This document shows, piece after piece, positions 12,440 to 54,497 of a stretch of 64,000 nucleotides of DNA. The notes under the pieces were generated by a model. The model saw nothing but the letters and a program-made list of their open reading frames with translations, had not been told where the DNA came from and made no database searches. The position numbers and the translations under genes were made by a program. The number at the start of each line of letters is the position of its first letter. Positions within the stretch are counted from its first letter, which is position 1. The stretch covers positions 64,001-128,000 of IMG/VR virus record IMGVR_UViG_3300032893_000004, one strand, 5' to 3'. The DNA is from a virus.

Positions 12440-13699
12440 CTAGCAGTCCTTTTTCTTCCAGTGTCTCGGCTTCCAGTCCTGTTTCATGTCTTCCTTGATT
12501 TCATCCTTCGTCATCATAACACCGCATTTCTTGGTGCCCATCTCGCCTTTCTTGGTAGAAGAAGCATTGATCTGGCTTTCAGTCATCGGCTGAGTGGCAG
12601 AATTCGGATCTTTCACGCCGCCTGGCTTCACGCTCGTGCACGGGCTGATCTGCTCCGCCGTCTTTGGCTGGGTAGCAGAGTTCGGATCTTTAGTACCGCC
12701 GGTCTTGATACCCGTGGACGGACTAATTTTGCTTGCGTCCATAGTATTCGGATTCGGCTGAACACCTCGTTCTGCGAGAGCGAGTCCCATCTCGCTAGTC
12801 TTCGCAGTCTTTTTTTCAGAAGTTGCGAGACCTGCGACGGACGACATCTTTCGGAGTTCCTCAAACCTCTTCGGATCTTCCTTGGCGATCTTCAAGAGAT
12901 CTCTTACAGCGGTAAGTGTCTCTGACATAGCAAGAGGGCCTGCGTTGCCCGCACCAGCGATGGAAGTACCGGGCATATCGACTTTGTTCATCGATGCGTT
13001 CGGCTTGTGCGGAGGCACTCCGCCAGCAACTCGATTCTGAGGGGAGCGGAGCTGCGACGGCTCGTGCAGCGTACGGAGGTGCGAGAGCATCGCCTTCTGC
13101 TTATCCGGAGTATCGAGGATCTTCATGGCGTGATGAAGCGATTCGTCACCTTCCGCCACGTTGTGGGCTTCAGCTCGCGGACTGCCGGCCGGGTGAGGCT
13201 GATCGTCCTTCTTGACAGGTTGCGCATGAGGATGCATGGCGTCTTTCTTCATCTGTTCGGAAGGATATCCAGCGCCGGGGCTATCGGGACCGCAGTCGCC
13301 GCCTTGAGCTTCGCCGGCTGGATTCATCGTATCCTTCTTCATCTGGTCGCTCGGATAGCCTGCAGTCGTCGATTCGCTGGAAATTTGACCGCCGACTGGT
13401 TCAGCGTACTCTTCCTTGGTGATCTTACCGTCGCGGAGAGCTGCCTTTCGCTGATTCATCTCTTCTTTGTTCATCTTGTGTCCTGTGGCAGCCGCATGTT
13501 GGAAAGCTTCCTTACCGTACTTTTTGCGACCCACCGCAGCAGCAACTGCTCCCGGATCTCTGGCACCGGATTCTTTAGCCTTATTTTCAACGGCCTTGAA
13601 CCCCAGATATTTCTTGCTAAGTTCTTGAAACTGTTCGGGATTATCCTTTGCAGCTTTCAGGAGTTCTTTCGCTTGTTCAAGTACAGATTTCTTACTCAC
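12440..13699 (-). CDS. Low-complexity putative internal head polyprotein
   Basis: K/D/P-rich with internal repeats and many [LMV]xK motifs; GAGG RBS. Confidence 0.6.
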   Translation of the reverse strand: MSKKSVLEQAKELLKAAKDNPEQFQELSKKYLGFKAVENKAKESGARDPGAVAAAVGRKKYGKEAFQHAAATGHKMNKEEMNQRKAALRDGKITKEEYAEPVGGQISSESTTAGYPSDQMKKDTMNPAGEAQGGDCGPDSPGAGYPSEQMKKDAMHPHAQPVKKDDQPHPAGSPRAEAHNVAEGDESLHHAMKILDTPDKQKAMLSHLRTLHEPSQLRSPQNRVAGGVPPHKPNASMNKVDMPGTSIAGAGNAGPLAMSETLTAVRDLLKIAKEDPKRFEELRKMSSVAGLATSEKKTAKTSEMGLALAERGVQPNPNTMDASKISPSTGIKTGGTKDPNSATQPKTAEQISPCTSVKPGGVKDPNSATQPMTESQINASSTKKGEMGTKKCGVMMTKDEIKEDMKQDWKPRHWKKKDC

Positions 13700-13734
13700 C
13701 GTTCACCTCTCCGAGAGATAACTTAGACTCAGTA

Positions 13735-13745
13735 CAGATTAGGCT
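13735..13745 (-). promoter_or_regulatory. AGCCTAATCTG motif (putative late promoter)
   Basis: Repeated motif; its TAA is the upstream gene's stop codon. Confidence 0.55.
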
Positions 13746-15475
13746 TTGCTCTTCATGAGCTTTCTCAAGCCCTTAGGCTCGCTCTTCTTCACCGTCCCGT
13801 GCTTCAAAGCTTCCATAACTTCTTGTCTGATCCGGTCATTTCCTTTCAGATGCTCTTCCAAGCCAGGGTAGGATTTGTCGTATTGACCGTGTATGTACAG
13901 GCCTACCTTTCGATTGTTTTTGTCAGCTGCGGCTAGATCCGACGCCATCGCATCTGCGTAGCCTGCCTTCTTCATAGTGGCCTCGTCAGGGAATACAACT
14001 GCGTGCGGCTTCGAGGGATCGATAAGGTGATCGTACTTCGAACCGAGGGATTGAACGATGTTGAAGTTGGGCAGCTTTTCAAGTTCATCGAGATGCTTGC
14101 GCAGAGCCGGATGATGGCTTTTCGTATATGCATAGAACATTAGCTCGGGGTTCGCCCGTGCTATCTCCGTCCATTTTTTAATGTAATCTGGCGAGTAGAA
14201 GTCGCCCGAATCGTGCACTCGGATCGCTTTTATCTTACCCTTCTTCTTGACCTCGTCGAACATCTTGTTCATCTTCTCGACGAAGTCTGGCTTCTGCGAT
14301 GCCAGCCAGTTTGCTACCCTAGGAGGCATGGTCGTCTTGTGGAATCGCAGGAAGGAGCCTGTATCAGCGTAGCAGTACTTCGCGCATGAACCAGCACCTG
14401 GGCACGTTTCGATAGGAACGAGATTGAACGACGCGATGCCGTCCTTCGCGAGCTTCGAATTGGTCGTACTGAGCGACACTTTAGTCTTCTCAGGGTTGGC
14501 CATCATGTCCGCTTTAACGTCCTTTACACGTTGGCGCTGATTCGGACGCTGAGCGTGAGGACTATCCGGATGCAGACCCGATACCGGTTTTGGAGCTGCC
14601 GGAGGTTTAGGTGATTTCTCCGCTTTCCCGAATAGTGCCCCGATTTCTTGCCGCACGTTTGCCCACCCTTCCTTGTTGGGAAGGCCGCCGCTGTTGGCTC
14701 TCTGAACTGCGGCCCCTGCGTCGTAAGATGGTAAGCGAGGTGGAGGCAGCGGAGTCGCGGAACCCGCTTCGCCGTCTTTGTTCATAGGAATCTCGTCCTT
14801 GACGGTTGCCTTGCCTGGCTTGACGTTCGAACTATCGGTTGTCCCGAGCAGCTTCATGGACATTCGCTTGCCGTCGTGCTGATTCTTGCGCCACACATCT
14901 GTGACGAACTTAGCAGCCTCAGAACGGAGAGGATGATCGTACGGGATGACGTTCCCCGCAGCCATATGCTCCTTGAGAGAGTGAGGAATTTCTACCCCTG
15001 CCACGTGAGTCTCTGGTTTTCGTACCGGTGAATTAACCGGAGCCTTCGCGTCTTTCGGCGAGATGCCGACTTTGAAACCTTTCGGGAGAGCCTTCTGAAT
15101 GACTCGGCCGAACCCTTTAGGTTTCGGCGGTTCTTTGACCGTGACGGTTCCGAACCCTTTAGGTTTCGGCGGTTCTTTGACCGTGACGGTTCCGAAGTTC
15201 TGCTTCGGGGCGGCGGAAGGCGCCTGATCATTACCGAATTCAGCTTTCGCGTATGCGACGCGCTTAAATCCATTCCTGACCATGGTCTGCCACGGCGCCG
15301 ACAGCAGGCCGCCGGAGTATAGGTGCTGGCCTGTCATCTGATCGTTCGGGTTTCGAGCACCAGCACCGGAAATAGTCGATCCGCCTAAGGTATCCTCGGA
15401 TTGATGCTGCGAAATGTCATTCGCGCCGCCGGAAGTGATGCCTTTGAGATTCGAGTCCGAGTTGTCCTGATCCAT
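13739..15475 (-). CDS. Putative head cargo polyprotein with a C-terminal GP88-like (radical-SAM-like) domain
   Basis: TNSKL...FNL...TCPGAGSCAKYCYA (CxxxxxCxxxC), IRVHDSGDFY, FYAYTKS. Confidence 0.65.
   Translation of the reverse strand: MDQDNSDSNLKGITSGGANDISQHQSEDTLGGSTISGAGARNPNDQMTGQHLYSGGLLSAPWQTMVRNGFKRVAYAKAEFGNDQAPSAAPKQNFGTVTVKEPPKPKGFGTVTVKEPPKPKGFGRVIQKALPKGFKVGISPKDAKAPVNSPVRKPETHVAGVEIPHSLKEHMAAGNVIPYDHPLRSEAAKFVTDVWRKNQHDGKRMSMKLLGTTDSSNVKPGKATVKDEIPMNKDGEAGSATPLPPPRLPSYDAGAAVQRANSGGLPNKEGWANVRQEIGALFGKAEKSPKPPAAPKPVSGLHPDSPHAQRPNQRQRVKDVKADMMANPEKTKVSLSTTNSKLAKDGIASFNLVPIETCPGAGSCAKYCYADTGSFLRFHKTTMPPRVANWLASQKPDFVEKMNKMFDEVKKKGKIKAIRVHDSGDFYSPDYIKKWTEIARANPELMFYAYTKSHHPALRKHLDELEKLPNFNIVQSLGSKYDHLIDPSKPHAVVFPDEATMKKAGYADAMASDLAAADKNNRKVGLYIHGQYDKSYPGLEEHLKGNDRIRQEVMEALKHGTVKKSEPKGLRKLMKSKA
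15108..15196. repeat. Perfect 42-bp tandem repeat (~2.1 copies) encoding FGTVTVKEPPKPKG
   Basis: ccgaaccctttaggtttcggcggttctttgaccgtgacggtt at 15108 and 15150, partial copy at 15192. Confidence 0.95.
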
Positions 15476-15481
15476 GGGCAA

Positions 15482-15492: not shown

Positions 15493-15493
15493 G

Positions 15494-17734
15494 TCAATAC
15501 GTTTTTAAGACCTGCTGGCCTAAGCGAAGCTCAGGAGGATGGAAGCGTATGCCGACATCTTTGGCCGTCAGAGCCGTACCTAGCTTGGACAAACGATTCC
15601 AATCGGCCTCATCTATCGCTACGTAAGGTTTGGCGTTCGTCTTAGGTCCTATCTGACTGAGGGCCACTCTCATGTGGTCGAGCTTCTTAGGCATGCCGTA
15701 GACCATCAAAACGTGCTCTTCTCGCCCGTCGATGCCTCTTAACTTGTGCGGGACATATGTCATCTTATCGTCCACTATCGGCTGATGGAGAGCATACTGT
15801 TCGAGTTGCGACCGAATGCTGTCATGGTTCAACGTCGAGGAATTGCCAAAGTCCTTGACCTTCATGCTGAATCGAGACCCATCTTTACGAGTCGTTTTCC
15901 CGCCAATCGTTACCGGATAGACTAAGTCCAGAGTAGGTGCCGGGGCGATCGTAGCTTCTGCTTTGTTGAACGCTTCGTATCCTTCAACCTCCGCCAATAC
16001 CGAGTTGGCGTCGATCTTGCGATTACGAGATATCAGACCACCTTCGCTGCCGCTCTTGATAAATGACACCATCGCACCGCAATACTTAGAGAATCGAACT
16101 TCCCTTGCGTCGCAGTCTTCGAGAATCTTGGCCAGCCACTTCGGTACGCCGGTTTCCTCTTTCACTTCGACTATGACGTAGTCGTCTTTTCGGATGCTAA
16201 GATGCCGTTTCTTGAAATCTTTCCAGTAGGACGAGTCTTTGATCATCTGCATCGACTCTGGAGATAACTGCTTAGCGTCAGAATAGCGAATGGAATCATC
16301 GATGGTTACTCTAAGCTTTTCGCTTGAGTAAGCTCGTCGCTGGTAGGTGACGACGATCTGCTTTCGGAATCCATATTTTTCTATGATCGTATTGATAGAA
16401 ACGACCCGCTTCCACAAGATATCCTTAGGGATGTCGACGTTCAACTTTTCCAGATCTTCATCGATGCGAACTAGCTCGCCGTTCGATATTGCGTCTATCG
16501 ATTCCGCTCTGATACGGATACGGATCTTCTTCGTTTGATCGTCCTTAGTCTTAAGCTTCAGTTCTAGGTACGCAACATCTTCCCAATGTTCACCGTTCGG
16601 CGAATATTGTCGTATCCGCACCTTGAAGCGAGGCTTTCTTCGCTCCATGTTATCGCGCATCGCGTCCAGGTCCGGATTGTCGAGGTAGATCGTCTTGTTG
16701 ACATTGAAACGAACGGAAGTATCCGGATCTCCGTCAGGCAACGAACTCTTGATACCGCTCAAAAGCTTGTCGAGGTTCTCAGATGGCATGAAGTGCTTCG
16801 TCTCTACGCGATTCATCAAAGCACTCGTATCCTCGTTGTGGATGATCTCGACTTTCTTCAGCGGTTTGACCGGGCCGAGGTAACTGTCCGCGAACGCGGC
16901 GCCGGCGCGAGTCATGTCTGGAGAACGAATCAGCTTCTTGCCTGATATCTTCTGGGCGTGGTCAACTAGCGCCGATCCGTTTCCTTGCCGTTGATGCAGC
17001 TTGTTAACTTCAAAGTTGAACGGCATGATCCCGTTCGGCTTATGAGTCATAGCTACGAATCCGATCTGCTTGCCGCCTTTGTGCATGCGTACGATGAAGT
17101 CGTGCTTGCGCGGATCGAACACCGACTTGTCGACCGCGAACGGCTCGACGGTGATGCGGCTGCGCACCTTTTCGATCGCTTGACAGACGCCGCTGATCGG
17201 CTCTTCCTGGCCGCAAACGATGCAGCGTGGATGCCCGTTTGGAAAGGTCCACTTGGCCGATTTGAAATCGTGAGAGCGGTGAGCTTCCGGTTTCTTTTTA
17301 TTCTCTCGTATCTTTTCGGTCTCAGCCTCGTACGATATCTGAGACTTCTTCAGACTCAGGCCCATCCAGTCTATTAGAATATTTCGCTTACCCGGCACGT
17401 GCATGTTGGAGTGCGTCGTCGGGTCCAGGAACTTGAACGTCACGAACTCGTGATCGGGATCTGACGTCGGATCGATATCGGCGTGGTCATGATGATCTGC
17501 CGCGTGCAGGACGACGTGATTATCTCCGTAGATCTTTTCGTGAATCTTATCTATCTTAACGCCCTTGATACCTGTCTCTTCTTCCAATTCGCGATTGGCT
17601 GCTTCTTGGTCCAATTCGCCAGGCTTGACATGACCGCCTGGGAGAGCCCACTTGTGATTATCTCGACGAAGCCCATGCAGGAACAGGTTTGGCTCGGAAG
17701 GATGTCTGATGGCTATGCAGACTACCTTCTTCAT
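15494..17734 (-). CDS. Multidomain protein: NUDIX + Cys micro-domain + GNAT + VTC (tunnel metalloenzyme) + degenerate 2H-phosphoesterase-like domain
   Basis: NUDIX box GGHVKPGELDQEAANRELEEETG; GNAT motif A HQRQGNGSAL; VTC motifs RVETKH, TIYLD, FKVRIRQY, LELKLK, YQRRAY, LRVTID, VEVK, FSKY. Confidence 0.75.
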   Translation of the reverse strand: MKKVVCIAIRHPSEPNLFLHGLRRDNHKWALPGGHVKPGELDQEAANRELEEETGIKGVKIDKIHEKIYGDNHVVLHAADHHDHADIDPTSDPDHEFVTFKFLDPTTHSNMHVPGKRNILIDWMGLSLKKSQISYEAETEKIRENKKKPEAHRSHDFKSAKWTFPNGHPRCIVCGQEEPISGVCQAIEKVRSRITVEPFAVDKSVFDPRKHDFIVRMHKGGKQIGFVAMTHKPNGIMPFNFEVNKLHQRQGNGSALVDHAQKISGKKLIRSPDMTRAGAAFADSYLGPVKPLKKVEIIHNEDTSALMNRVETKHFMPSENLDKLLSGIKSSLPDGDPDTSVRFNVNKTIYLDNPDLDAMRDNMERRKPRFKVRIRQYSPNGEHWEDVAYLELKLKTKDDQTKKIRIRIRAESIDAISNGELVRIDEDLEKLNVDIPKDILWKRVVSINTIIEKYGFRKQIVVTYQRRAYSSEKLRVTIDDSIRYSDAKQLSPESMQMIKDSSYWKDFKKRHLSIRKDDYVIVEVKEETGVPKWLAKILEDCDAREVRFSKYCGAMVSFIKSGSEGGLISRNRKIDANSVLAEVEGYEAFNKAEATIAPAPTLDLVYPVTIGGKTTRKDGSRFSMKVKDFGNSSTLNHDSIRSQLEQYALHQPIVDDKMTYVPHKLRGIDGREEHVLMVYGMPKKLDHMRVALSQIGPKTNAKPYVAIDEADWNRLSKLGTALTAKDVGIRFHPPELRLGQQVLKTY

Positions 17735-18748: not shown

Positions 18749-19690
18749 TTACTCCGTCGACAGCTGGCGCTCTATACCAGGGACGATCACGTCGCGCCAT
18801 TGTCTCTCAGCGTGTTCGTAGGCCGACTGAAAGAAGTTGGCAGCTTCCACTGCAGGGTACATCCAACGGTTCTCTGCCTTGTGCTTCGAAGAAATCGTCC
18901 GGAACACAACTGTTTCTTTCTTAACTTTCTTTCCAACTTTGCGCTGGACCTGTACAGCGCCTTGTAGCTTGAAAATGCCAGCGTGCGGTGGTAGAGGTCT
19001 CATGCCACCGGCTCCGGTCTTAGCCGAATCCTCCGAACTGCGAGGGTTGGAGTAGAGCACGCCGGGCGCGAAGCCTGTAGCTTCTGCGGCGCGGATGTCG
19101 AGTTTCCGTATGATTCCTATCTTGGCTGTACCGTCGGAGTTCTTCTCGATGACAGTAGGTGATATGTTGTTCGCTTTCAGGTGAGCGAGCACGATGTTGG
19201 CTAGAATAGGATTAGCGCCTGGAGCCGGCTTCCTTCCTTCCGTCTCTTTGAAAGGAATAGCCCGATAGAGAGATCCGTCCTTCGCACGCTTGACGCCCTT
19301 GGCGCCCGGCTTTAAGAGCCAGTCACCCATGAACATTTCTTGTCGACCTTCTTCGAGCCAGCGGGCTCTCTCGTCCAATTCTACCATCCAGATACCGTCG
19401 GCGATCTTGATCCAGCGAAGATTCTTGACTGTTTGATCGATGCGCGGATCCTTCGAAGATACCCCGTGCGCACCTTTCCCTTCTTTGCCGATACCTAGAT
19501 AGTGCTCTCGCTTGAAGTTGGAATTAGCCCACTTCGTGTTCGCCTGATTGATGATATACGCGTGCGTCGCTATCGAGAGAGTTTCGACTGCTTGAACCAC
19601 GAGAGGTTCTACCTGGGAACGGGTCTTCTCAAGCTGCTCTGCTACGGCGGAGACATCTACCTTGAATCGGAATGCGGCGACGTTGTTCAT
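18749..19690 (-). CDS. Probable neck/tail completion protein
   Basis: WLEEG, YRAIPF, FRTISSK and WMYP resemble SPO1/Twort-like neck proteins; synteny. Confidence 0.5.
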   Translation of the reverse strand: MNNVAAFRFKVDVSAVAEQLEKTRSQVEPLVVQAVETLSIATHAYIINQANTKWANSNFKREHYLGIGKEGKGAHGVSSKDPRIDQTVKNLRWIKIADGIWMVELDERARWLEEGRQEMFMGDWLLKPGAKGVKRAKDGSLYRAIPFKETEGRKPAPGANPILANIVLAHLKANNISPTVIEKNSDGTAKIGIIRKLDIRAAEATGFAPGVLYSNPRSSEDSAKTGAGGMRPLPPHAGIFKLQGAVQVQRKVGKKVKKETVVFRTISSKHKAENRWMYPAVEAANFFQSAYEHAERQWRDVIVPGIERQLSTE

Positions 19691-20901
19691 CCATTAGCCC
19701 CTTCCGACGCCTTGCCTTCCTTGCCTTCTTCTGCATGAGCATTGTGCGAATCGACGGAGATCGGATTGCCTTTCCCATCCTTCACCTGGCCAGCGATCAT
19801 GCCGCGCCACTTCGCTTTACCATCGACGATGACCTTCTTCTTGCGGTTTCGCACCGTTCCGGGAGGAAGTGTCAAGCGTAGGGCCTTGTTCAGATCCTCG
19901 GTCATATCGGAAATTTCCGTCTTTACAACCGACGATTTCTTGGATTTGGCGACATCGACCAGCTTCTGGACGAGAGCGATGACCTTCTTGAACGCTTCCG
20001 GATTTTTCTCGTGAAGCTTCATAAGTTCAGGCATCTTTTCCTGCACGGACGTGAGGAGCTTGCCCAGCTTCTCGTTCGTTGCGTCGGAATCGCTGTCGTC
20101 TGAATCATCATCCGAATCGGAATCTTTGTCCTTTTTCTTAGACTTAGAATCCTCTTCGGAATCCGAATCTTCTTTCTTCTGCTTCGTTTCGGTCTTGGGT
20201 TTGTCCGTCTTCTTTTCTCCGGACATAGCCTCAAGCAAGCTGCCGGGCGGATTCTGTTCTTTTTGTTCTTGCTCCTGCTGCGCCTGCTGTTGCTGCTGAA
20301 GTTCGTTGGTCGGGCCCATGAGCATCTGCACGGTGGCGTTGACCATCTGAGCTTCCGACTGCATCTGCTGGTCAGCCGTGAGAGCCGGGACCACTTTTCC
20401 AACCGAGAACTTGTACGCGTCCGGGGCGGGCGATCCGGGATGATTCTCTTGGTCCGTACCGTTGATGTTCGGCTGGGGCTGAAACAGATCTGCTTCGAGC
20501 TGAAGAGTCTTGTTGAGCGAGCTGTACGACTCATCTTTCGGATCGTACAGTTCGATCTGGTTCGTAAACGTAGCTTTCTGGGCTGCAACGGACGCTTCTT
20601 TCAGATCCATGCCCATGCCAACCGCCATCAGCGATCCGAATACCTCTCGGTATCCAGCTACGATGAGAGGAAGTTCTTCAGCAATGGTGACCGGAAGCTC
20701 GATGATCTGGCGATCGTAGATCGATAATTTGACCGATCCGCCCTTGTCGCTGATAAGCTTGCTGATTTTTTCGCTTATGGCCTTGAGATGATAGTCTAAG
20801 TCCTTAGCTTCGGCGAAGTAGCCAGAATCGACAAGATCTCTGATCTTGTCGGCAACCGAATCGGTAGCTATCATGACCCACACACTAGTTTGGGTGCTCA
20901 T
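19687..20901 (-). CDS. Protein with an N-terminal degenerate mCpol/GGDEF-like domain and an acidic low-complexity tail
   Basis: Residues ~6-119 follow the mCpol pattern, but ATD replaces DGD and IYD replaces GGD. Confidence 0.5.
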   Translation of the reverse strand: MSTQTSVWVMIATDSVADKIRDLVDSGYFAEAKDLDYHLKAISEKISKLISDKGGSVKLSIYDRQIIELPVTIAEELPLIVAGYREVFGSLMAVGMGMDLKEASVAAQKATFTNQIELYDPKDESYSSLNKTLQLEADLFQPQPNINGTDQENHPGSPAPDAYKFSVGKVVPALTADQQMQSEAQMVNATVQMLMGPTNELQQQQQAQQEQEQKEQNPPGSLLEAMSGEKKTDKPKTETKQKKEDSDSEEDSKSKKKDKDSDSDDDSDDSDSDATNEKLGKLLTSVQEKMPELMKLHEKNPEAFKKVIALVQKLVDVAKSKKSSVVKTEISDMTEDLNKALRLTLPPGTVRNRKKKVIVDGKAKWRGMIAGQVKDGKGNPISVDSHNAHAEEGKEGKASEGANG

Positions 20902-21578: not shown

Positions 21579-23504
21579 TTAAATGCCGTGATTCTTCTTG
21601 ATCAGCAGTCGGCTCTTCAAAGTGAGCAGGAAGAGTTTGACGATTTCAGGGTCGGCACCCTTCGCGAATTCCATCCCGTAGGAGCCGTCCGACTTTCGAA
21701 GCACCTTCACAAACTTGGAAGGATTACCTTCCTCGTCTTTCTTCATTACCAAGAAACAGGCGCACGGCTGGAACTGCGGATTGCCATCCTGTCCCTTCAC
21801 GAATTCCGGTACACCGCACTGAGAACAGGCGGACTTGTACAGCTGTTCTTCGGTAGCAGTCGATCGCATCGGCTCAGATTTGCCGAGCTTACTGCGGAAA
21901 TAGTCAGACTTGTTCATAGACGGCGGTTTCGGTGCGCCTGGAGTATGCGGCGGCTTGATCTTGCCTTTGCCGGACATCTGGGACTGCTTCGCTGCCTGAG
22001 CCGCCGGATTGTTACCGGGAGCGACCGGAGGCTTCGGCATCTGAGGCGGTTTCGGTGCCATCGGCTGACCGGCGCCTTTTGGCATCTCACCTTTGCCCAT
22101 TTCTTCTTTTTTAATTTTCAATTTGATGGAATCAGCATCGGCTATCTTGTCCGCAACTGCTTGACCCACCGCCGGGTCCATTTGATCCTTATGAACATGC
22201 TTCGGTAGATGATGTCCTTCGGTGGCGCGGTCCCATTCCTTTACTGCCGCTTCGCCGCCGAGAGCCCGTTTGCCTGCCGGACTGTGGCCCCAAGCAGCTT
22301 GAGCTTGGGAAGCCCACGGTTTCGAAAGCATTTCCATCTTTTTGCGAAAATATTCGTGCGCCTGGTTCTTTCCTGGCGATGCCGTTCCGACCGTATCTGT
22401 CCGCTGCTCTGTCGGATTCAGCGTTCCTTTTTTGAAAGGCGTCTCGGGTTCTTGGACAGGCTTATGATTACCTGGACCGAAAGGTTTTTCTTGGTGCGGC
22501 TCGTCAACGCGGGCGGCGCCGACAGGATCGATCTTCGGTTTCGTAGCAGGATCTTGAGTCGAACCAGATTCAATTTTCTTGTCCGACATAGGAGGATCTT
22601 GCTTCTTGAACGGTTTCTCTTCCTGCTGGGACGGAGCTTGTTTTCCAGGCTTGAACGGCGTCTGGGAACGAAGATTGACGGTTTCGTCTGTTCGATCTTC
22701 TCCAGCTTTCACCTTCTGGGGTTTTGTTGCCGGCTCTTCTAGATCTGTCGTATCCTTGCTCTTGTTACGGTCGAGCTGAGCGTACGAATCAGATGGGCGA
22801 ATCGTGGAAGTGTCAGCTCGTTTCCTGGTAGTATCGCTCATCTTCTTTTCCTCTTTGGCAGTTTCGTCAAGTTCAGACTCTAACCGTTCCCTTTGCATCT
22901 GCTTAGCGGTCAGCGCGTCGACGAGTTTGCCGATAACAGCGGTCATCTCCCTCACGTTGGCGTGAGACATGGTCCATTTTATGTTTTCTGGATCTTCTTT
23001 CGTCTGAATATTCGCCATCGAGATCATATGGCGGAGGGATTCGTGCTCCGGTGCCTCAGCTTTCGGCTCGGCTAGCTCAGGCTTCGCCTTGACCTCTTCG
23101 GCGACAAGATCGTCTGCAGTCTTCGGTTTGTCGAATTCGTGATACATCTCGCCTACAGACAACAGGTGGCCGGATGCCGCTGGTAGGGACTGCTTCTCGA
23201 ACTGGTGGATGACGCGTCCGCCTTGAACGAACTCCATGCGGTACTGGTCAGGAGCCTGCTTCTCGATGTGAATCATGATGTCGTCGCGGCCAGGAAACTT
23301 GATATCTTTGATCTCGCCCTGTCTCATCGGATTGATGTTTTGAACGAGCCAAGATAGAATCGTTCTCGGAACAACTATCAACGGAAGATAAAATTCGAGT
23401 GGATCAACGACGGCCTGAGTCCGCTGCTTGTATATGGCCTTTTCGAGAGTTTCATACCCTCGATCGCCAAGAATTGACTTGAGCAGCTTCTGACTGTCGT
23501 TCAT
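21579..23504 (-). CDS. Putative internal head polyprotein with C-terminal Cys cluster
   Basis: Folded N-terminus, K/P/E-rich repeats, CSQC...CAC, and many hydrophobic-x-K motifs. Confidence 0.55.
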   Translation of the reverse strand: MNDSQKLLKSILGDRGYETLEKAIYKQRTQAVVDPLEFYLPLIVVPRTILSWLVQNINPMRQGEIKDIKFPGRDDIMIHIEKQAPDQYRMEFVQGGRVIHQFEKQSLPAASGHLLSVGEMYHEFDKPKTADDLVAEEVKAKPELAEPKAEAPEHESLRHMISMANIQTKEDPENIKWTMSHANVREMTAVIGKLVDALTAKQMQRERLESELDETAKEEKKMSDTTRKRADTSTIRPSDSYAQLDRNKSKDTTDLEEPATKPQKVKAGEDRTDETVNLRSQTPFKPGKQAPSQQEEKPFKKQDPPMSDKKIESGSTQDPATKPKIDPVGAARVDEPHQEKPFGPGNHKPVQEPETPFKKGTLNPTEQRTDTVGTASPGKNQAHEYFRKKMEMLSKPWASQAQAAWGHSPAGKRALGGEAAVKEWDRATEGHHLPKHVHKDQMDPAVGQAVADKIADADSIKLKIKKEEMGKGEMPKGAGQPMAPKPPQMPKPPVAPGNNPAAQAAKQSQMSGKGKIKPPHTPGAPKPPSMNKSDYFRSKLGKSEPMRSTATEEQLYKSACSQCGVPEFVKGQDGNPQFQPCACFLVMKKDEEGNPSKFVKVLRKSDGSYGMEFAKGADPEIVKLFLLTLKSRLLIKKNHGI

Positions 23505-23949: not shown

Positions 23950-24882
23950 TCAAAGCATCCCGCCGTCTTTACCGCCGTCATTTGGACCAGTTACGCCGCC
24001 GACAGGCGGAGCATTCTGAAATCTCTGATCGGCTCGGGATCGCATCGGATCGTTGTTCTGGTTGCTCATGACGTTTTCGCGGTAGATCAGCGCCTGAAAC
24101 GGCATCCTCTCGACGTTTCGTTCGAAGGTCATCGGATCGGTGATCTGGCTGATGCGAATCTCATGCATCATGCGGGCGACCACGAAATATGGGGTGTACC
24201 GATACCGAACTGCAAAAACCGTTCCTTTCAAGGTCTTATCGTTCCAGCCGGGTCGATTCTGAGAGATCCAGCGAATCATACCTCCGTTCTCCCCGCGCTC
24301 GTTCGGCACGGTAAGCTCAAAATCCACTCCTTGCGTGTACTCCTTTCCGTCTGCGTCAATCAAGTACTCTACGAACGTGGCCGGATACTGGAGCTTGTCT
24401 AAGCCGGTCGAATTTGCTTCCAGGTATTGGAAGGCAACTACGCGAACTTCGACGTCTTTTAAATAAAAACGGTCGTACGAGGAAATCAGAACGTCTTTTT
24501 CAGGATCGTCCTCGTACTTCATCGGGCACGTCACAACTGCCGCGTCGTGCTTCGTAAGTCCTTCGACCTCGATTTCCCAGTCAGACGTGCTGGCCGAGAA
24601 CCAGATATGCATCGTGCCGGCTTCCTTGTATAGAAAACCGTCGGATGACGAGCGGGCGGCCAGGACGGCGTGGACGTCGCCTATAGAAGACATTCCGGTC
24701 GGATCCGGCAACGCCCGATAATGTACGACGTTGACGCCTTGCCCTTTGATCAAGTTGTCGAACGCTTCTTTGTCGAACGACTGCTGGTAGTGCGCCAGGT
24801 TGAAGATCTGCTGCATGCCGTCAACTGGCTTCGGATCTCGGCGGCGCGGGCCGCCACGACGCTTCGGATTACTTTGCGGCAC
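23950..24882 (-). CDS. Probable head-closure/neck protein
   Basis: FD.LIKGQG..V.HY.A..DP, YDRF and YTQGVDF...VRYRY.P resemble SPO1/Twort-like head completion proteins. Confidence 0.55.
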   Translation of the reverse strand: MPQSNPKRRGGPRRRDPKPVDGMQQIFNLAHYQQSFDKEAFDNLIKGQGVNVVHYRALPDPTGMSSIGDVHAVLAARSSSDGFLYKEAGTMHIWFSASTSDWEIEVEGLTKHDAAVVTCPMKYEDDPEKDVLISSYDRFYLKDVEVRVVAFQYLEANSTGLDKLQYPATFVEYLIDADGKEYTQGVDFELTVPNERGENGGMIRWISQNRPGWNDKTLKGTVFAVRYRYTPYFVVARMMHEIRISQITDPMTFERNVERMPFQALIYRENVMSNQNNDPMRSRADQRFQNAPPVGGVTGPNDGGKDGGML

Positions 24883-41773: not shown

Positions 41774-41784
41774 AAGATTAGGCT
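41774..41784 (-). promoter_or_regulatory. AGCCTAATCTT motif (putative late promoter)
   Basis: Contains the stop codon of the 2191-aa gene; ATG lies 8 nt after TAATCT. Confidence 0.6.
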
Positions 41785-48353: not shown

Positions 48354-48949
48354 TTTTCACCGTACTTTAGCCAACGCATCAGCTCTTTTGTCCAGTCTTG
48401 ATCTTCCGCACCGGAGAGGTTAGCTTCGTCGATGGCCGGATCATATTCTCTGGAAGCCATTTCCCGATCGTCGTCGTGCTTCTGCTGATCTTTTTCAACC
48501 ATACCGAGAACTGTATCGTTGATCTTAGCCTTGGGCGAATGGAAGTCCGGCGGCGGATTGGCCGGCACAACCGGTAGGGCCTGCTGAACGTCTGTTTTGC
48601 GAGCTACTTTGATCTCGCCGCGAGTGAAAGCATTGAACAGCGCGTCCTTCTCTTCCTGCGGCAACAGGTGACCGTTGAGGATGACCGTGTGGCCGTCCGA
48701 GGTGATCTCTACCACGTCGCCGTTGTCCATGACGTACCGTAAAAGATTGACGGTGGCCTTGGTCGGCTCCGACATAGTCAGGTGCGACGAATTTCCGACA
48801 ACCTGCTGCATCTTCGGATAACTGTTCTGGAACAACTTAGGCAATTGGCCGTTTGTATTGTCTACGACAAAGTCGAGCGCATCTCCGTCCGTGCGGATCT
48901 CCGCGAGCGGTATTTCGGAATAATCTGATTTGATGACTACGACTTTCAT
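48350..48949 (-). CDS. Hypothetical protein
   Basis: Coupled between the protease and the giant gene. Confidence 0.55.
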   Translation of the reverse strand: MKVVVIKSDYSEIPLAEIRTDGDALDFVVDNTNGQLPKLFQNSYPKMQQVVGNSSHLTMSEPTKATVNLLRYVMDNGDVVEITSDGHTVILNGHLLPQEEKDALFNAFTRGEIKVARKTDVQQALPVVPANPPPDFHSPKAKINDTVLGMVEKDQQKHDDDREMASREYDPAIDEANLSGAEDQDWTKELMRWLKYGEK

Positions 48950-50646
48950 GCTACTCTCTTCGCTCTTTCTTCGGCGTTAACCTTGGTCATATGATTCGCT
49001 GCGTGATCAAACATCTGTCCTATGCTCATGTCAGAACGATCGGCGAGTTTTTGATAATATTTCAATCCAGAAACCGCCGTTTTTATTGTAGCAGGATCGT
49101 GACCTTGATCCAACATCTTTCCGGCAAGAGTTTTAGCGTCTATGCCCTTGAGCCACTTCGCAGCTTCCGGATGAAGCTTATCGTTCCCTTTTTCGGCAGA
49201 AATAAGGTCAGGTTCCGTAAAACCACCGTTCCAACCGAGAAAAGCATCGTCGTGATCTATGCTCATCAGATGACCTTTAGGATGAACCAACAAATTGCCG
49301 TTATGCCGGTCACCTACACCAAGAATATGATTCGCGATAATCAACTTGTGAATGTGGCCATCCTTCTCGTGTTTCCGAAAAGCGTTGGCTAGAACATCTC
49401 CGCTTTGCAAAGGAGTCTTTGCTTCTTTTATGTATTCCATGGCTGATATGGCATTGCCGCCGTGGACGTTCGGATGTGCTACTTTTGTGACAATCGGCAC
49501 ATACTTTCCGAGTCCAAAAACGTCTTTCATGATCTGAAAGTGATTGTGCGCATTCGTGTATTCTTTGTCCGCCATACGATTTCCGACTGGACCTTCCGGC
49601 CTATGCTTAACCAAGACGTCCCGTCCTTGATCGTTACGAAGATGCAGGATTTTCTTTTTCCGACTGGAATGCACAGACTCGGAAGCTGGATCGTAGTAAA
49701 GTCCCTCTACCAGCGACTTCTGGTCATCGTCGGACGACGGATGGGCGTGCTTAGCTCCGATGCGCACCAGCTTTGGAGACGGCATGTTCTTCTTGAGCGC
49801 CAGCTCTTCCGCCAGCTTCTCGAAGTGGCCGATGTAGTCGTCTGACACCTCTGGTAGAGCGCCTTTCAGCACTTCCTTGAGAGGACGCTTGCGGTCCCAG
49901 TCGCGAACAGCGGCCTTCACGCGATTTCTCTGGAATCCGCTGATATGCTCGCGGGTAAGTGCGGCTTGACCGGTCAGCTGGGACGGAGCTACGTTGCCCA
50001 TACCAGCCTCTATGCTCTTCGTGAGACTCTCGACGGCCTTGTGCAGATCCAGTATCGGATCCTTGGGGATGAACATATCATCGAGGATAATTGAATCGAT
50101 TTCGATTAAATGATCGACTCGATCCGACACATCTGAAATATATTTAGCTATTGAGATCGATTTTGGATCTTCAAGTAATCCGGCTATGGCTGCCTTATTG
50201 CACGCGCGTAAGGTGCATGCCACGCGCCTTCCGACAGTTTCTTTTAAGATGTAGTCATCCCGCTCAAGCGTCGCACCCTCAATACTGAAGTTTGTAAGTA
50301 GCCGTTCGCCCTGTTTTGCATAATAACGTATCATTGCGGCGACTGCGACTGCGCCAGGATGATTTACATCATCGTCATCGAACAATTCTGAAATAATATA
50401 AACAAACGGCTTTTTTACTATGTTCCAATAATATCTTTGACGATCATTTTCACAATCTTCTTTTTTAAGAATTTTTCTTGCATAGATAATTGCCCCGATG
50501 ATATCGTCGGATTTATTCGAATGCTCCCAATTTAATACCCCTCGGCCTTCGACGAGATCTGATATGTCGTGGTTGGCAACAACGAGTAACTCACCTGAGC
50601 TGTCGATTGTTTCAACTGTTGCACATCCGTCCAGTTTGAGGCCCAT
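48946..50646 (-). CDS. Prohead (maturation) protease fused to a C-terminal PI3K/HipA-like kinase
   Basis: N-terminal DG.AT.E..DSSGE, LNWEH (His), FSIEG (Ser), VA.T...N; C-terminal LVKH, ILGVGDRHNGNLL, SIDHD. Start ATG 50646 with GGAGG. Confidence 0.75.
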   Translation of the reverse strand: MGLKLDGCATVETIDSSGELLVVANHDISDLVEGRGVLNWEHSNKSDDIIGAIIYARKILKKEDCENDRQRYYWNIVKKPFVYIISELFDDDDVNHPGAVAVAAMIRYYAKQGERLLTNFSIEGATLERDDYILKETVGRRVACTLRACNKAAIAGLLEDPKSISIAKYISDVSDRVDHLIEIDSIILDDMFIPKDPILDLHKAVESLTKSIEAGMGNVAPSQLTGQAALTREHISGFQRNRVKAAVRDWDRKRPLKEVLKGALPEVSDDYIGHFEKLAEELALKKNMPSPKLVRIGAKHAHPSSDDDQKSLVEGLYYDPASESVHSSRKKKILHLRNDQGRDVLVKHRPEGPVGNRMADKEYTNAHNHFQIMKDVFGLGKYVPIVTKVAHPNVHGGNAISAMEYIKEAKTPLQSGDVLANAFRKHEKDGHIHKLIIANHILGVGDRHNGNLLVHPKGHLMSIDHDDAFLGWNGGFTEPDLISAEKGNDKLHPEAAKWLKGIDAKTLAGKMLDQGHDPATIKTAVSGLKYYQKLADRSDMSIGQMFDHAANHMTKVNAEERAKRVA

Positions 50647-51395
50647 TATGCGTACCTCCAAATGTATCCTCTATGCGTTTTTGTGACTCCGCAACAAACA
50701 CCGCGTACCTTCGATGCGCAACATCCAATAGATTCAGTATCTTTAGGGCAGTCCCATACCTTTACTGTCAATCCCGTCAGCGGATCGATCTGCAAAACTT
50801 TTTTGGCTCTTTTTAATTGAAGTTCTCGCTTGAAAATTGGGTCCAGACGCAATTTATTTAGTCTCGCTTCATTCGCTGCGCTAAGAGCTTCGCTGCGATC
50901 ATGGGTCGACCAGTATTTTTCGGCTCCGGCCATGCGATTTTGTTTGCCGGAATCAGACATTTTCCGCAATTGTTCTTTTCCAGCATCTGTGGCTGCCCAC
51001 AGTTTACGTTCTTCTGACTTTTTCGTACGTCGGTCTTTGTCCCAGCTCGCGATTGCGCTGGCAGAAAGTGTCTTTTTCAATTCTGATGTGTATATGCATC
51101 CTTCTTTCCCGCCATGTTTAATGTTGTATCCCGAGGGACGAAGTGAGCCAAAACATACTATAAAATGTCTCTCCATGCGATCCAAGGAAGTCTGATCTAT
51201 ATATGTAATCAACTCTTCCTTTTCAAAAGATTCGCGCCCATATTTTTTTATGGCATTCTTGATTGGCCTAGAAGTATTTTTGGTCGCACAACAATGGTCT
51301 GCCCAACGCTCGGCCATTGAGCGAGTAGTCTGGCCGATATAGATCTTACCGTTCACATTGTTCGTGATTTTGTAAATGATTCCGTATCGTTGCAT
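50646..51395 (-). CDS. GIY-YIG homing endonuclease with NUMOD1-like C-terminus
   Basis: GIIYKITNNVNGKIYIGQT, RW..H, GYN...GG; C-terminal KTHRGYIWRY. Likely start MQRYG at 51395. Confidence 0.9.
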   Translation of the reverse strand: MQRYGIIYKITNNVNGKIYIGQTTRSMAERWADHCCATKNTSRPIKNAIKKYGRESFEKEELITYIDQTSLDRMERHFIVCFGSLRPSGYNIKHGGKEGCIYTSELKKTLSASAIASWDKDRRTKKSEERKLWAATDAGKEQLRKMSDSGKQNRMAGAEKYWSTHDRSEALSAANEARLNKLRLDPIFKRELQLKRAKKVLQIDPLTGLTVKVWDCPKDTESIGCCASKVRGVCCGVTKTHRGYIWRYA

Positions 51396-51401
51396 TCTCG
51401 T

Positions 51402-51412
51402 AAGATTAGGCT
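51402..51412 (-). promoter_or_regulatory. AGCCTAATCTT motif (putative late promoter)
   Basis: Upstream of the GIY-YIG and protease genes; ATG lies 7 nt after TAATCT. Confidence 0.6.
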
Positions 51413-52296
51413 CATCCGTGATTACATCCTGGTCCGTGTTCATGCTCTCTCTCGTGTTCAATATTCATAGCTAAATACTCATCGTAACTCACGAATTCGC
51501 TCTTAACAAGAGGAACTGCATCTGGCACTTCTTCGGCTTTCTTCAGCTTCCAGTAGTCCTTGTGGTAGTCATACCCAAATTCGACGAACTCGATCACGCC
51601 AGCATCGTTGAAGCCGAAGTTCGGCGGGACAAAGCTCATCACGTGTCGGCAGCGCGGGTGAAGCGGCGACTGATGCGGAGTCTTTCCGTCCCATTCTTTG
51701 GGCTTGAAGTATCCCTCCTGGATCTGTGACAACTTGTACGGCTTCGGCTTCCGTATCGCAGCGGAGTCGTGGTACATCGCCTTGCAGTATTTACAAATCT
51801 TGTGGTCGCAGACTCCTAGAAAAACGACGGTCGGATCTTTGACACCGATGTCAGACGCAAGCTTGCCGATACCCTCGCGCGAGGCATATGTCTGCACGAT
51901 GCGCGCTTCGTTCGAGACGAGCAGATCGACGTACTGACCTGCCTTCTCGAAGTGCCCGCGAATAGATCGAATCGCTTCAGATGGGGTCTTCGCTTTAGCC
52001 ACGTCTGCCAGAATGTGGTTCTTGATCTTGAGCTGCTGTGAATCCATGTAATTACTCGTAATATCAGCCAAATTTTCGATATTCTTCTGATCAGGCTTAG
52101 AATGGGCTCCGTACATGGTCTTCAGAGTGAAGTTGTACAGGCCTTCGATCGTATGGAGCGGATCAGCTCGGCGAACGACTTCGAAGTACAGCTTCGGCCC
52201 TTTGAACATCTTGCCTAGCAGCTTAGCCTTCGTTCCTTCGAACAGAGACTCGATCCGCTGGATTATGATGTTCCTCTGGGCGTCGGTGAGCTTCAT
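51412..52296 (-). CDS. MuF/SPP1 gp7-like head morphogenesis protein
   Basis: Follows the portal gene; D.KICKYC...PLHPRCRH. Confidence 0.7.
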   Translation of the reverse strand: MKLTDAQRNIIIQRIESLFEGTKAKLLGKMFKGPKLYFEVVRRADPLHTIEGLYNFTLKTMYGAHSKPDQKNIENLADITSNYMDSQQLKIKNHILADVAKAKTPSEAIRSIRGHFEKAGQYVDLLVSNEARIVQTYASREGIGKLASDIGVKDPTVVFLGVCDHKICKYCKAMYHDSAAIRKPKPYKLSQIQEGYFKPKEWDGKTPHQSPLHPRCRHVMSFVPPNFGFNDAGVIEFVEFGYDYHKDYWKLKKAEEVPDAVPLVKSEFVSYDEYLAMNIEHEREHEHGPGCNHG

Positions 52297-54497
52297 CAGC
52301 TCCCCTTCTTTTTACCGTCTTTGAGGATCCTCGCCATGGCGGCGACCTCTTTCGCAGATTCGCGCTTGAAGTGGGCCATCGTGGAGTCTACCAGCTGCTT
52401 GTGCTGGCGCATCAGGCGACGCGAGATTCTATCGTGGTTATTCTGGATGGTCTTTTCGAGCAGCATGTAGCTATTCGTCGACCACGCCATATTCTTGGCC
52501 GAGATATCCTTCACGATGTCGATCGCTTTTTCGGCTTTAGAAGTCTGCTCAGGCGGCATGCTGCCGCCTCCGGAGTCGCTGCTGTCATCGTCCGACCCGG
52601 AATCCTTGTTGTCCGAGCCAGAATCTTTGTTATCACCTTCGTCGTCCTGGATAGGGTTTCCCTGCGCGTCAGCCGTGATACCTTGCTCGGCCAGTGCCTG
52701 CTGCTGCATCATCTGCTGAGCTTGCATCTGCTGCTGCATCGCTATCTGAGCTTGCTGGAGGATCATCTGCTTGTTCTGGAACCAGAACGGATCGCGGATG
52801 TACTGGTAGCGAGGATCAGACGCAGCGCCTTTCACTTTGAAGAAGTTTTCGAGGATCTGACCAACAGTCAGGTACTTGTCCATGACTGCCTGGAACTGCG
52901 GGTTAAGCGGAAAGTCGCCGCCCATCTCGACCGGAACCGGGTTCTTCTCGACCTGTTCCATGATCTCGTTGTAGTTCATGTGAACGGCCATGTCCTGCTG
53001 CAGACGGGTGTTCTCTTTTTCCGGAGAATCCTTATCCAAACCAGTCAGAACGATCTGATGCGTCTTAGCCAGTTCCGGATCCACGAATGGGAGGATATGG
53101 GTATTCAAAAAGTCTTGGATATCGGATAAGAGCGGACGGAGGCCCACATCGCGGGCAGCCGTAAGCTTCCACTCGTTGTCCGATTCTGAAAGTGCCTGAG
53201 TATTCGTGCCCCGAGCAAGGTGAGCGTAGCCAGGCAATTCTTCCGGCGACATCTGGAAGGCCGAGAGGATCACCCGAGCGTTGTTGTCCATCAGGTACTG
53301 GAATTCTGCGTCGCGGCCGGAGTTATCGATCGCTTCCCAGTTCAGCTTATCCTCGGATCCGATCGCGAAGACGGGCATGCGCCACGAGTTTTGAACGGAG
53401 TTGATCGACTGATGGAATTGGAGGCGAATACGCTGTGCTGCTGCTTCGTCCATGGAGTCGGACTGGAACACGAGCATGCCCTTCGAAGCGCGGCCGTGCT
53501 GGAAGTACAGCTTGTTATGGACAGTGATGTTGATGTGGGTCGTGATCGCGTTGAGCGCCTGATCGATCGGAGTAAGAGGGTAGCCGTTATACTCGATGCC
53601 TGTCGTCGGATAAAGATTGTAGACGACCATCTCTTCTTCGGTGAATGTCTGAACCGGCTTTCCTTCGATGACCTGAACGTAGCGGTACTCGTCCTTCTTG
53701 TACTTCTCGATGTCGATCTTCTTGTTCTTGATCTGCTGCAACTGACGAATAGCTTCTTGGCGAAGCGACTGGTCGTGTTCTTTCTGCGGCAAGATTTTCA
53801 ACATCGTGCCGGCGTCGGAAGCGCGCCATGCGTATAGTTCTCGTTTGCCTGTTTCCGGATTCGTCCACCAGCTACGTTCGCAGGCGAGACGACCGAAGGC
53901 AAGTCCATCGCGGGTCACCAGCTTCAGGAATTGAGACAAGTTGACTTGATCAAGCTCGCCGTCAAGAGTGCCGCGACCGCACTGCCAGAACTTCTTCTTG
54001 GCTGCGTCGATTCTCTCTTGAATCTTGCGCTGATCTTCTTCAGAACGCTTGGCGTTCTTGTCCATGTCTTGAAATTCGAAGCCTACACTGAAGCGGTCCG
54101 TCCTAGGACGACCGAAGGATGATATATGGTTCGAACGAGCTTGAAGAATCTCGTTGACCAACTCGTCGCCGCCCGGCCCGCAGATACGCTTGATGATATG
54201 ATCAGGCGTTAGATTCTGTTTTAGCCGGTAAAATCCGAGAGCACCGGAATAGTTAGCATGCGGGTCAACCTGGAACGACATTCGTTCGAGTTGAGCTGCC
54301 TGCATAGCGTTCTGAGCTTTGATAGACTTAACAATCTCACCGAGAACACCGGTATCAGCTGTAGTCACTTCCTCTTTTTCGTTGGAAAGTTCCCGCGCCG
54401 CCGCGTCAGCTTTAAGAAGCTTCAGAGCGTTCGGATCCAGAGCGACTATCTCTTGCCGTGGGCGATAACGCTTCTTTTTTTCTTCTTCGTTTGCCAT
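52296..54497 (-). CDS. Portal protein
   Basis: FLKLVTRD, GYPLTPID, NKLYF.HG...KG.L, NSWRMPV, RDAEFQ, SAFQMSPEEL, GLRPLL; position after TerL. Confidence 0.88.
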   Translation of the reverse strand: MANEEEKKKRYRPRQEIVALDPNALKLLKADAAARELSNEKEEVTTADTGVLGEIVKSIKAQNAMQAAQLERMSFQVDPHANYSGALGFYRLKQNLTPDHIIKRICGPGGDELVNEILQARSNHISSFGRPRTDRFSVGFEFQDMDKNAKRSEEDQRKIQERIDAAKKKFWQCGRGTLDGELDQVNLSQFLKLVTRDGLAFGRLACERSWWTNPETGKRELYAWRASDAGTMLKILPQKEHDQSLRQEAIRQLQQIKNKKIDIEKYKKDEYRYVQVIEGKPVQTFTEEEMVVYNLYPTTGIEYNGYPLTPIDQALNAITTHINITVHNKLYFQHGRASKGMLVFQSDSMDEAAAQRIRLQFHQSINSVQNSWRMPVFAIGSEDKLNWEAIDNSGRDAEFQYLMDNNARVILSAFQMSPEELPGYAHLARGTNTQALSESDNEWKLTAARDVGLRPLLSDIQDFLNTHILPFVDPELAKTHQIVLTGLDKDSPEKENTRLQQDMAVHMNYNEIMEQVEKNPVPVEMGGDFPLNPQFQAVMDKYLTVGQILENFFKVKGAASDPRYQYIRDPFWFQNKQMILQQAQIAMQQQMQAQQMMQQQALAEQGITADAQGNPIQDDEGDNKDSGSDNKDSGSDDDSSDSGGGSMPPEQTSKAEKAIDIVKDISAKNMAWSTNSYMLLEKTIQNNHDRISRRLMRQHKQLVDSTMAHFKRESAKEVAAMARILKDGKKKGS

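Follow-up and report, generated by a model that had tools for sequence, protein, structure and literature searches.

The protease gp4 of phage HK97 (S78) cuts the capsid protein gp5 after a Lys (K103|S104), and the herpesvirus assemblins follow the site rule (V/L/I)-x-A|S. In phages T4, phiKZ and SPN3US, many head and ejection proteins are processed at one motif (PMC9026906, PMC10052503), and T4 packages, cuts and injects enzymes such as Alt (PMC9026906, PMC9958956). Polyvalent proteins, which combine 2-15 unrelated effector domains in many architectures, are predicted to be packaged and injected, and their processing has been proposed (Iyer et al. 2017, PMC5512222). Here we describe the head-to-neck block of a Mx1-like myovirus from IMG/VR virus record IMGVR_UViG_3300032893_000004, in which a common Lys motif, phi-x-K|S-E, is carried by a putative prohead protease, by the structural head proteins and by several multi-enzyme proteins whose genes are interspersed with the neck genes. 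Phi is a hydrophobic residue (L/I/V/M/F) and the bar marks the proposed cut position, with Lys at P1 and phi at P3. The stretch of DNA analyzed (the window) covers 64,000 nucleotides, bases 64001-128000 of the 155-kb record, and its minus strand holds all genes of the finding.

A preliminary description of the window had proposed that effector polyproteins encoded between positions 12440 and 54497 (the span) are packaged in the head and cleaved at a loose motif, [LIVMF]-x-K-[SATDE]. Based on our analysis, the window probably encodes capsid-loaded polyvalent enzyme proteins that are processed by the prohead protease at the sharper phi-x-K|S-E. Indirect evidence supports both the cleavage code and a location in the capsid well, while injection of the freed modules into the host is suggested by analogy only.

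Gene order was read from Pfam, PHROGs and synteny with Myxococcus phage Mx1, the closest named relative, whose capsid protein is 52.6% identical. A megablast search with 24.5 kb against phage records gave no DNA-level match, relatives being visible at the protein level only. Four whole related genomes (G001, G002, G003 and G005) and the structural block of Mx1 (1-50 kb) served as validation set; they were added after the motif had been sharpened and had been used neither for the preliminary description nor by us before.

Results

A protease of the prohead type is joined to a capsid-arm copy and a kinase-like domain

The 571-aa prohead protease polyprotein (48946..50661, minus strand) consists of a protease domain (about residues 6-165, nt about 50167-50646) with a disordered linker after it, a capsid N-arm-like module (residues 205-240, nt 49942-50049) and a PI3/PI4-kinase-like domain (about residues 300-571). 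For the first of these, Pfam and PHROGs gave no protease match (S77/S78/S80 included) and a PDB sequence-profile search was empty. The AlphaFold2 (AF2) model has a predicted local distance difference test score (pLDDT) >90 over residues 1-160, and in a VIA-align search of 48,161 chains its top match was T4 gp21 (5jbl_A, Z 9.5, rmsd 2.8, 117 residues), followed by the varicella-zoster virus protease (Z 9.4); Foldseek returned herpes assemblins (probability 1.0, E 3e-4). The first ~165 residues are conserved in every relative, with His42 and Ser121 invariant in 17 homologues. By its modelled fold, not by its sequence, the N-terminal domain is a prohead protease of the T4 gp21/herpes assemblin kind. 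Its gene sits between the portal and the scaffold/capsid genes, in the same order as in Mx1, where the counterpart is annotated as putative prohead protease. A GIY-YIG homing endonuclease gene (50646-51461, minus strand) lies directly upstream, between the genes for a 294-aa protein and the protease, and overlaps the listed start of the latter; it has no counterpart there in Mx1.

Residues 205-240 of the polyprotein, where two sites (K208|A and K215|S) are located, are 56% identical to capsid residues 3-38. When a profile was made from the N-terminus of the capsid protein, it found an internal copy in 22 related loci, always in a protease homologue and after the catalytic domain. The copy starts with phi-x-K|[A/T/S/G]-phi-x-A-G, and the pair of capsid and protease-linker modules is present in nearly all of 30 related loci. 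In the AF2 model the stretch comes after the disordered linker. The domain that follows matches Pfam PI3_PI4_kinase (residues 437-474, E 8e-11) and keeps the D-R-H-x-x-N and I-D-H motifs. A cut at the arm copy would give this kinase-like domain the same new N-terminus as the mature capsid protein, and the copy may serve in co-assembly with capsid or scaffold. An all-against-all peptide search among the window proteins found the capsid/protease module and two kinase cores to be shared, and nothing else.

The Lys motif is enriched in the head-to-neck block of six genomes

In the span, the loose motif occurs 124-127 times versus about 88 expected from whole-protein shuffles (z 4.0-4.3), and the excess persists under local shuffles in 10-30-aa windows (z 3.7-4.0), on which ground an artefact of composition or local composition was rejected. 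The reversed motif is at chance (ratio 1.0), as are variants with P1 swapped to R, E, D, N, S, T, A or G, while Q gives z 2.4, and the ratio in the remaining genome is 1.17. The loose motif thus has a true excess that depends on direction, but a weak one, since chance alone would produce some 70% of its matches. The strings quoted in the preliminary description are all present on the minus strand at the genes it named, and its caveat about chance matches in Lys-rich proteins was right. Its [SATDE] definition captures a real excess but is over-inclusive, and three of the proteins it put forward as motif carriers (591, 348 and 404 aa) are each at chance with it.

The sharpened (strict) motif is phi-x-K|S-E, with phi-x-K|[SAT]-[ED] as its wider form. 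Between the large terminase (TerL) and tail sheath genes of the window genome, phi-x-K-S-E is found 7 times versus 1.2 expected, compared with 0 versus 1.9 elsewhere, and all 7 K-S-E tripeptides of this block have L/I/V/M/F at P3. The wider motif occurs 9 times in five head proteins (1.1 expected), 9 times in eight cargo candidates (2.6 expected) and 3 times in the other 22 span genes (3.4 expected). The excess within the window is restricted to the head and cargo proteins named by the preliminary description.

Enrichment in the block is seen in the validation set too. Observed and expected counts of phi-x-K-S-E in the block are 14 and 1.9 in G001, 19 and 2.1 in G002, 14 and 0.9 in G003, 12 and 1.2 in G005, and 12 and 0.7 in Mx1 (structural block only), with 1 and 2.5, 4 and 3.2, 3 and 3.3, and 2 and 3.4 in the rest of G001, G002, G003 and G005, respectively. 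From terminase to tail sheath, enrichment in the six genomes is 6- to 18-fold (z 5-14 overall and 8.5-14 in the five relatives), and outside the block the five whole genomes show no more than chance numbers. P3 is hydrophobic in 78 of the 95 K-S-E tripeptides within the blocks versus 9 of 29 elsewhere, and a 6-fold enrichment of K at P1 and a 3.6-fold enrichment of E at P2' are likewise seen in the block only. As 66 sites are encoded by 21 distinct 9-mers with background-like codon usage, selection acts on the protein, and a DNA-level motif (promoter or repeat) was rejected given the 21 different 9-mers.

These counts bear on one alternative, that the matches are chance in lysine-rich proteins. 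The loose motif lends itself to that view, with most of its matches expected, the 591-, 348- and 404-aa proteins at expectation and some sites within folded VTC and GNAT domains. The excess, however, is directional, Lys-specific and survives local shuffles, and for the strict motif chance is refuted by the z values in six genomes and the chance level of the remaining genomes; as a general explanation it is hardly tenable.

The gene orders of G003 (L056-L064) and G005 (L065-L073) are unlike that of the window, with no effect on the motif signal. Capsid and protease genes have opposite orientations in G005. G003 has capsid and scaffold on one strand and protease, portal and neck genes on the other, and its sheath, tube, terminase and portal genes are consecutive.

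Sites in the capsid, scaffold and portal proteins

The major capsid protein (463 aa, 38461..39852, minus strand; phrog_752, E 2e-33) begins with a doubled L-V-K|T-L-E. The first 13 residues (nt 39814-39852) form a putative propeptide with its end at K13|T-L-E-A-G and a duplicate site at K6, and 29 related loci keep phi-x-K|[AT]-L-E-A-G at the N-terminus. Capsid residues 309-406 match phrog_19622 (esterase/lipase, E 2e-9) and may be an inserted surface domain.

The scaffold-like protein (279 aa, 39855..40694, minus strand) has six sites (K24, K30, K172, K196, K217 and K250), versus 1.26 expected for the loose motif (z 4.5). K172, K217 and K250 are kept in 7/7 homologues of 23-53% identity as phi-x-K followed by S-E (or T/G-E), within linkers that are otherwise variable, and the scaffolds of Mx1, G003 and G005 have 4-7 strict sites each. 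The portal protein (733 aa, 52296..54497, minus strand; Pfam Phage_portal, phrog_15361) has K29 and K57 in its N-terminal tail and three more sites, K663, K682 and K726, in its C-terminal tail, and the matching tails of relatives carry strict sites (G001 K6, K28 and K619; Mx1 K47 and K639). The 294-aa protein (51412..52296, minus strand), encoded after the portal gene in the position of MuF, has K253|A-E and K265|S-E at the start of a clade-specific C-terminal tail, and its G001 orthologue has K252|S-E and K263|A-E. The labels MuF, mCpol-like and muramidase given in the preliminary description were unconfirmed by Pfam or PHROGs.

The 746-aa five-module protein and its shuffled relatives

The main cargo candidate is a 746-aa protein (15494..17734, minus strand) with five modules: NUDIX (1-145), a small Cys-rich unit (~158-178), GNAT (190-289), VTC (304-569) and a 2H-like module (597-746). 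At least two unrelated effector-type domains (NUDIX, GNAT, VTC) are thus in one chain, and genes of this kind lie among the late virion genes, from capsid and neck to sheath. Pfam matches the NUDIX (E 3e-16) and VTC (E 5e-33) domains and gives a weak GNAT match. The NUDIX box is intact. The C-terminal 2H-like module (nt 15494-15940) folds with high confidence, but both catalytic His residues are apparently missing; in our own reading Ser and Tyr stand where homologues have the H-x-T/S His pair, and the module of the window may be inactive.

In an AF2 model with mean pLDDT 85.6, four folded blocks (1-145, 190-289, 304-569 and 597-746) are separated by linkers with pLDDT <50 (148-157, 179-188, 290-303 and 570-596). 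Of the four border sites, K188, K294 and K591 are in linkers (pLDDT <55), and K130 is in a helix trailing the NUDIX domain, where homologues carry phi-x-K|[S/A]-E. Mapping onto the predicted structure therefore agrees with the border positions proposed before, but not with the five loose-only matches K203, K347, K437, K499 and K516, which the model places within folded domains and which are most simply taken for chance matches.

Among 1.84 billion representatives searched, 1718 homologues were found, in which the modules are separate and occur in many orders in proteins of 283-2353 aa. The extents of the modules judged from these homologues (NUDIX 1-132, the Cys-rich unit, GNAT 187-292, VTC 296-570 and the C-terminal unit 587-746) place breaks in homology at about 130, 190, 295 and 590. 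Among the 150 best of the 1718 homologues, phi-x-K-S-E occurs 73 times versus 8.8 expected, internal VTC modules have a site no more than 45 aa upstream in 14 of ~17 cases versus a 10% background. In the related genomes, the Pfam domains of cargo proteins are flanked by sites. A second punctuation, K-L-A-A-S-E, is found 24 times versus 0.1 expected among the 150 best homologues and is absent from the window; it is seen in P0004, P0005, P0009, P0013 and others, and in a 819-aa protein of G001 and a 584-aa protein of G005.

Two relatives, P0010 and P0026, start with the window-type protease (E 3e-36 and 1e-29, respectively), and both carry Pfam VTC domains. P0026 has a capsid-arm module (hidden Markov model E 1e-8), while in P0010 the corresponding M-R-K|A-L-T-A-G string is seen by eye only. 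Given these fusions, the cargo modules of the window belong, in relatives, to a protein that is by nature inside the prohead.

Positions at module borders and in repeated units, with no cut observed, would also fit a conserved linker, a docking motif or a recombination junction for swappable modules. The core, however, also marks the border of the capsid propeptide, the scaffold, the portal tails and the protease linker, which is the substrate set of the prohead protease in T4 and SPN3US (PMC10052503, PMC9026906). The L-A-A-S-E variant found in homologues moreover agrees with the herpes assemblin site rule. Such a structural or recombinational role for the motif is improbable, and cleavage by the prohead protease remains the better account.

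Other candidate cargo proteins among the neck genes

The 591-aa protein (26376..28151, minus strand) is a second PI3/PI4-kinase-like protein (Pfam PI3_PI4_kinase, E 1e-7) with one strict site, K16|S-E, preceding an N-terminal region of ~115 aa; in its 860-aa G002 orthologue, a site at 275, GNAT at 308-367, a site at 392 and the kinase from 395 follow one another. The 348-aa protein (25333..26379, minus strand) has no strict site and no family match; its counterpart is part of a larger fusion with other modules both in G003 (a protein of 416 aa) and in G005 (584 aa). A 155-aa protein (24869..25336, minus strand) has K73|S-E between its two halves, with a strict site at residues 72-80 in its counterparts in Mx1, G002, G003 and G005.

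The 641-aa protein (21579..23504, minus strand) has a conserved N-domain, a low-complexity middle and a Cys-rich C-terminal domain, with sites at K532, K542 and K604. At the position of K542 (L-G-K|S-E), immediately ahead of the Cys-rich domain, 8 homologues have phi-x-K|[SG]-E. The sites of the scaffold, 641-aa and 155-aa proteins are retained in homologues of 23-57% identity, within variable linkers. The 404-aa protein (19687..20901, minus strand) has a conserved N-terminal part, an acidic low-complexity middle and K327|T-E as its only strict site; two sites, K128|A-E and K316|S-E, are present in its G002 orthologue.

The 580-aa protein (13739..15481, minus strand) has a low-complexity N-half with sites at K130, K235 and K286|A-E, a GP88 domain (339-520, Pfam E 1e-36) and K566|S-E near the C-terminus, and its 1012-aa G002 orthologue has 5 strict sites around DUF6321 and GP88. 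In the lysine-rich 419-aa protein (12440..13699, minus strand) 8 loose sites are found versus 3.3 expected, mostly phi-x-K|D/E and including a repeated M-K-K|D unit. The 576-aa G001 orthologue has L-P-K|S-E four times, in repeated units.

Once cleaved, this set of proteins could instead act in the assembling head, as core or scaffold-like factors or as enzymes on packaged DNA, and be degraded or retained there without injection. The site-richest proteins are indeed the scaffold and lysine-rich low-complexity ones (the 419-aa protein and its 576-aa orthologue), and the 2H-like module of the window seems to have lost its catalytic His residues. The NUDIX box and the kinase D-R-H-x-x-N and I-D-H motifs are intact, however, and from one relative to the next the set of modules varies strongly and is reshuffled, as is typical for conflict effectors (PMC5512222) and not for assembly parts. 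We consider a purely in-head role unlikely.

Which enzyme may read the motif and which bond may be cut

A ClpP-like protease of 227 aa (29686..30369, minus strand; Pfam CLP_protease, E 4e-33) is encoded in the same block, and PHROGs classes such proteins as head maturation proteases, raising the possibility that this protein, or a host enzyme, reads the motif. Its gene adjoins the neck genes and is confined to the subclade of the window (G000, G001 and G002, the last with a second partial copy). G003 and G005 lack it and yet have an equally strong motif signal (10- to 16-fold enriched), for which reason the ClpP-like protein was rejected as the reader. The assemblin-fold protease, by contrast, occurs in all of the genomes and bears the motif in its own linker. 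Recognition by another protease is accordingly very improbable, and the most likely reader is the N-terminal protease of the 571-aa protein, which would cut on the C-terminal side of Lys in phi-x-K|[S/A/T] and prefer Glu at P2'.

Because the capsid/protease anchor and the linker motif have Lys alone in common as an invariant residue, and because L-A-A-S-E fits the herpes rule, the sequences point to a cut between Lys (or Ala) and Ser. The preliminary description had stated that Twort-like capsid proteins are matured after a Lys; our literature searches found no usable measured Lys-specific cut in Twort-like or SPO1-like capsids.

Other genes of the block

In the direction of transcription the large terminase (56162-58069, minus strand) is first. 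A lysine-poor 542-aa protein (54501-56129, minus strand; 1.1% Lys) with Ala/Thr/Gly-rich repeats is encoded between terminase and portal; its Mx1 counterpart has 331 aa, and it is weakly similar to a 1309-aa fibre-like protein and to an insertion in the sheath. After the 571-aa protease gene come those of a 199-aa protein and of a giant protein of 2191 aa (41778-48353, minus strand), which lies in the span between protease and scaffold. The giant protein has no Pfam, PHROGs or ESM Atlas match and is conserved in the closest relatives only (26-74% identity). It has no strict site in the window and three in G002, and its loose matches number 16 versus 14 expected. Two small proteins separate it from the scaffold gene.

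The capsid gene is followed by an island with a ligase, DUF932 and the ClpP-like gene, and then by the neck region, interleaved with the odd proteins of 591, 348, 155, 641, 404, 746, 580 and 419 aa. An endonuclease VII-like gene (20898-21563, minus strand) among the neck genes has no counterpart there in Mx1. The tail sheath gene (9369-12143, minus strand) comes next, then the tube.

Discussion

The Lys motif common to the capsid propeptide, scaffold, portal tails, protease linker and neck-interleaved multi-enzyme proteins, which the preliminary description had discerned in the window, holds in five relatives as well. Its wider claim that effector polyproteins are packaged in the head and cleaved is supported in part, by the motif link, the border positions and the fusions of modules to the protease in relatives; the loose motif was too inclusive, and several labels found no confirmation.

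Under the processing we propose, the prohead protease would remove the 13-residue capsid propeptide, dice the scaffold and trim the portal tails. It would also cut its own linker, freeing the PI3/PI4-kinase-like domain with its capsid-like N-arm, and would then separate the modules of the neck-interleaved multi-enzyme proteins (NUDIX, GNAT, VTC, GP88, the second kinase and others). If the prohead protease separates these modules, the multi-enzyme proteins must sit inside the prohead. Finally, T4 Alt and internal proteins, the ejection proteins of phiKZ and SPN3US, and polyvalent proteins suggest by analogy that the freed modules may be delivered to the host together with the DNA.

Several points weigh against this account. 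The fold, the motif statistics, the restriction to the block in six genomes, the positions at module borders and the module-protease fusions are direct observations, while the scissile bond, cleavage, packaging and injection are all inferred from them. The cut may instead fall after the Glu of K-S-E, since Glu precedes the bond cleaved by the nearest structural relatives (T4 gp21 and the phiKZ type). The strict signal of the window is the weakest of the six genomes (7 K-S-E and 22 wider-motif sites from TerL to sheath), and the 348-, 419-, 591- and 404-aa candidates carry no or one strict site. Some conserved matches also lie inside folds, for example those at capsid K230 and portal K335-346 in relatives, and the motif by itself is thus no proof of a cut. 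A homology-junction test went in the right direction (5 observed versus 1.5 expected, p ~0.01) with low power, having 17 sites only, and the TOP-IDP disorder proxy gave a modest mean percentile of 0.62 that is partly circular since K, S and E score as disorder-promoting. The motif was refined after the scaffold had been seen, and the relatives used for validation are homologous and so not fully independent. Literature searches yielded no usable Mx1 virion proteomics or proteome data for Mx1-like phages.

It is also possible, though we offer this tentatively, that Mx1-like phages and a wider metagenomic group load their capsids in a general "beads-on-a-string" manner. The protease would bring cargo through its copy of the capsid N-arm and dice its own tail and several polyproteins at phi-x-K|S-E into a dozen or more injected enzymes, such as kinases, NUDIX, GNAT, VTC and others. 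In that case the linker code and the N-arm tag would be transferable rules by which proteins of choice could be loaded into a capsid.

If our account is correct, phi-x-K|S-E is a rule readable from sequence that predicts capsid-internal proteins and their cut positions in a poorly known phage clade. It would give a first functional context to orphan modules like GP88, DUF3293, DUF6321, DUF5661, phage VTC and the PI3/4-kinase-like domains, and would connect prohead-protease processing as in T4 and phiKZ, polyvalent effectors and protease-cargo fusion, so far described separately. Tag and linker might also be put to use in capsid loading. As Mx1 and its host Myxococcus xanthus can be grown, the prediction is directly testable.

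Among known systems, T4 gp21 is the best structural match to the protease, and both use a short linear motif with a hydrophobic P3 and a charged P1 on the capsid propeptide, scaffold and internal proteins. P1 is Lys here and Glu in T4, and the likely substrates here are long multi-module chains, unlike the single T4 proteins that lose an N-terminal targeting peptide. In addition, cargo here is carried by the protease itself, and processing is predicted from sequence. With phiKZ gp175 and SPN3US gp245 (PMC10052503, PMC5694885) the system shares many head proteins with one motif, the portal included, possibly in several copies per substrate, and, as proposed here, self-trimming of the protease at its C-terminal side. 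The motif there, A/S/G-x-E|, removes N-terminal propeptides, whereas the sites here are between enzyme modules and in a 155-kb non-jumbo phage.

Similarly, polyvalent proteins (PMC5512222) are encoded among late virion genes and join unrelated modules in one chain, NUDIX and GNAT being mentioned there. Processing by an in-chain zincin-like peptidase was proposed for them, in contrast to a linker code shared with capsid, scaffold and portal and presumably read by the prohead protease. None of the hallmark MuF, zincin-like MPTase, ART and ParB-like domains was found by Pfam or PHROGs in the window proteins, an absence that is not decisive.

Herpesvirus UL26 likewise has an assemblin-fold protease, a cleavable linker and a C-terminal part that contacts the capsid protein, and the L-A-A|S-E of the relatives conforms to its site rule. 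The C-terminal part here is a copy of the capsid N-arm with an enzyme, not a scaffold, and P1 is mostly Lys. HK97 gp4 shares the superfamily fold, but HK97 has no cargo proteins, its scaffold is the delta domain of the capsid protein, and no Pfam S78 match was obtained here. New in the Mx1-like phages is the combination of one Lys-type linker code on both structural proteins and shuffled enzyme chains, a cargo-bearing protease, a copy of the capsid arm within that protease, and a cultivable member, Mx1, in which the prediction can be tested.

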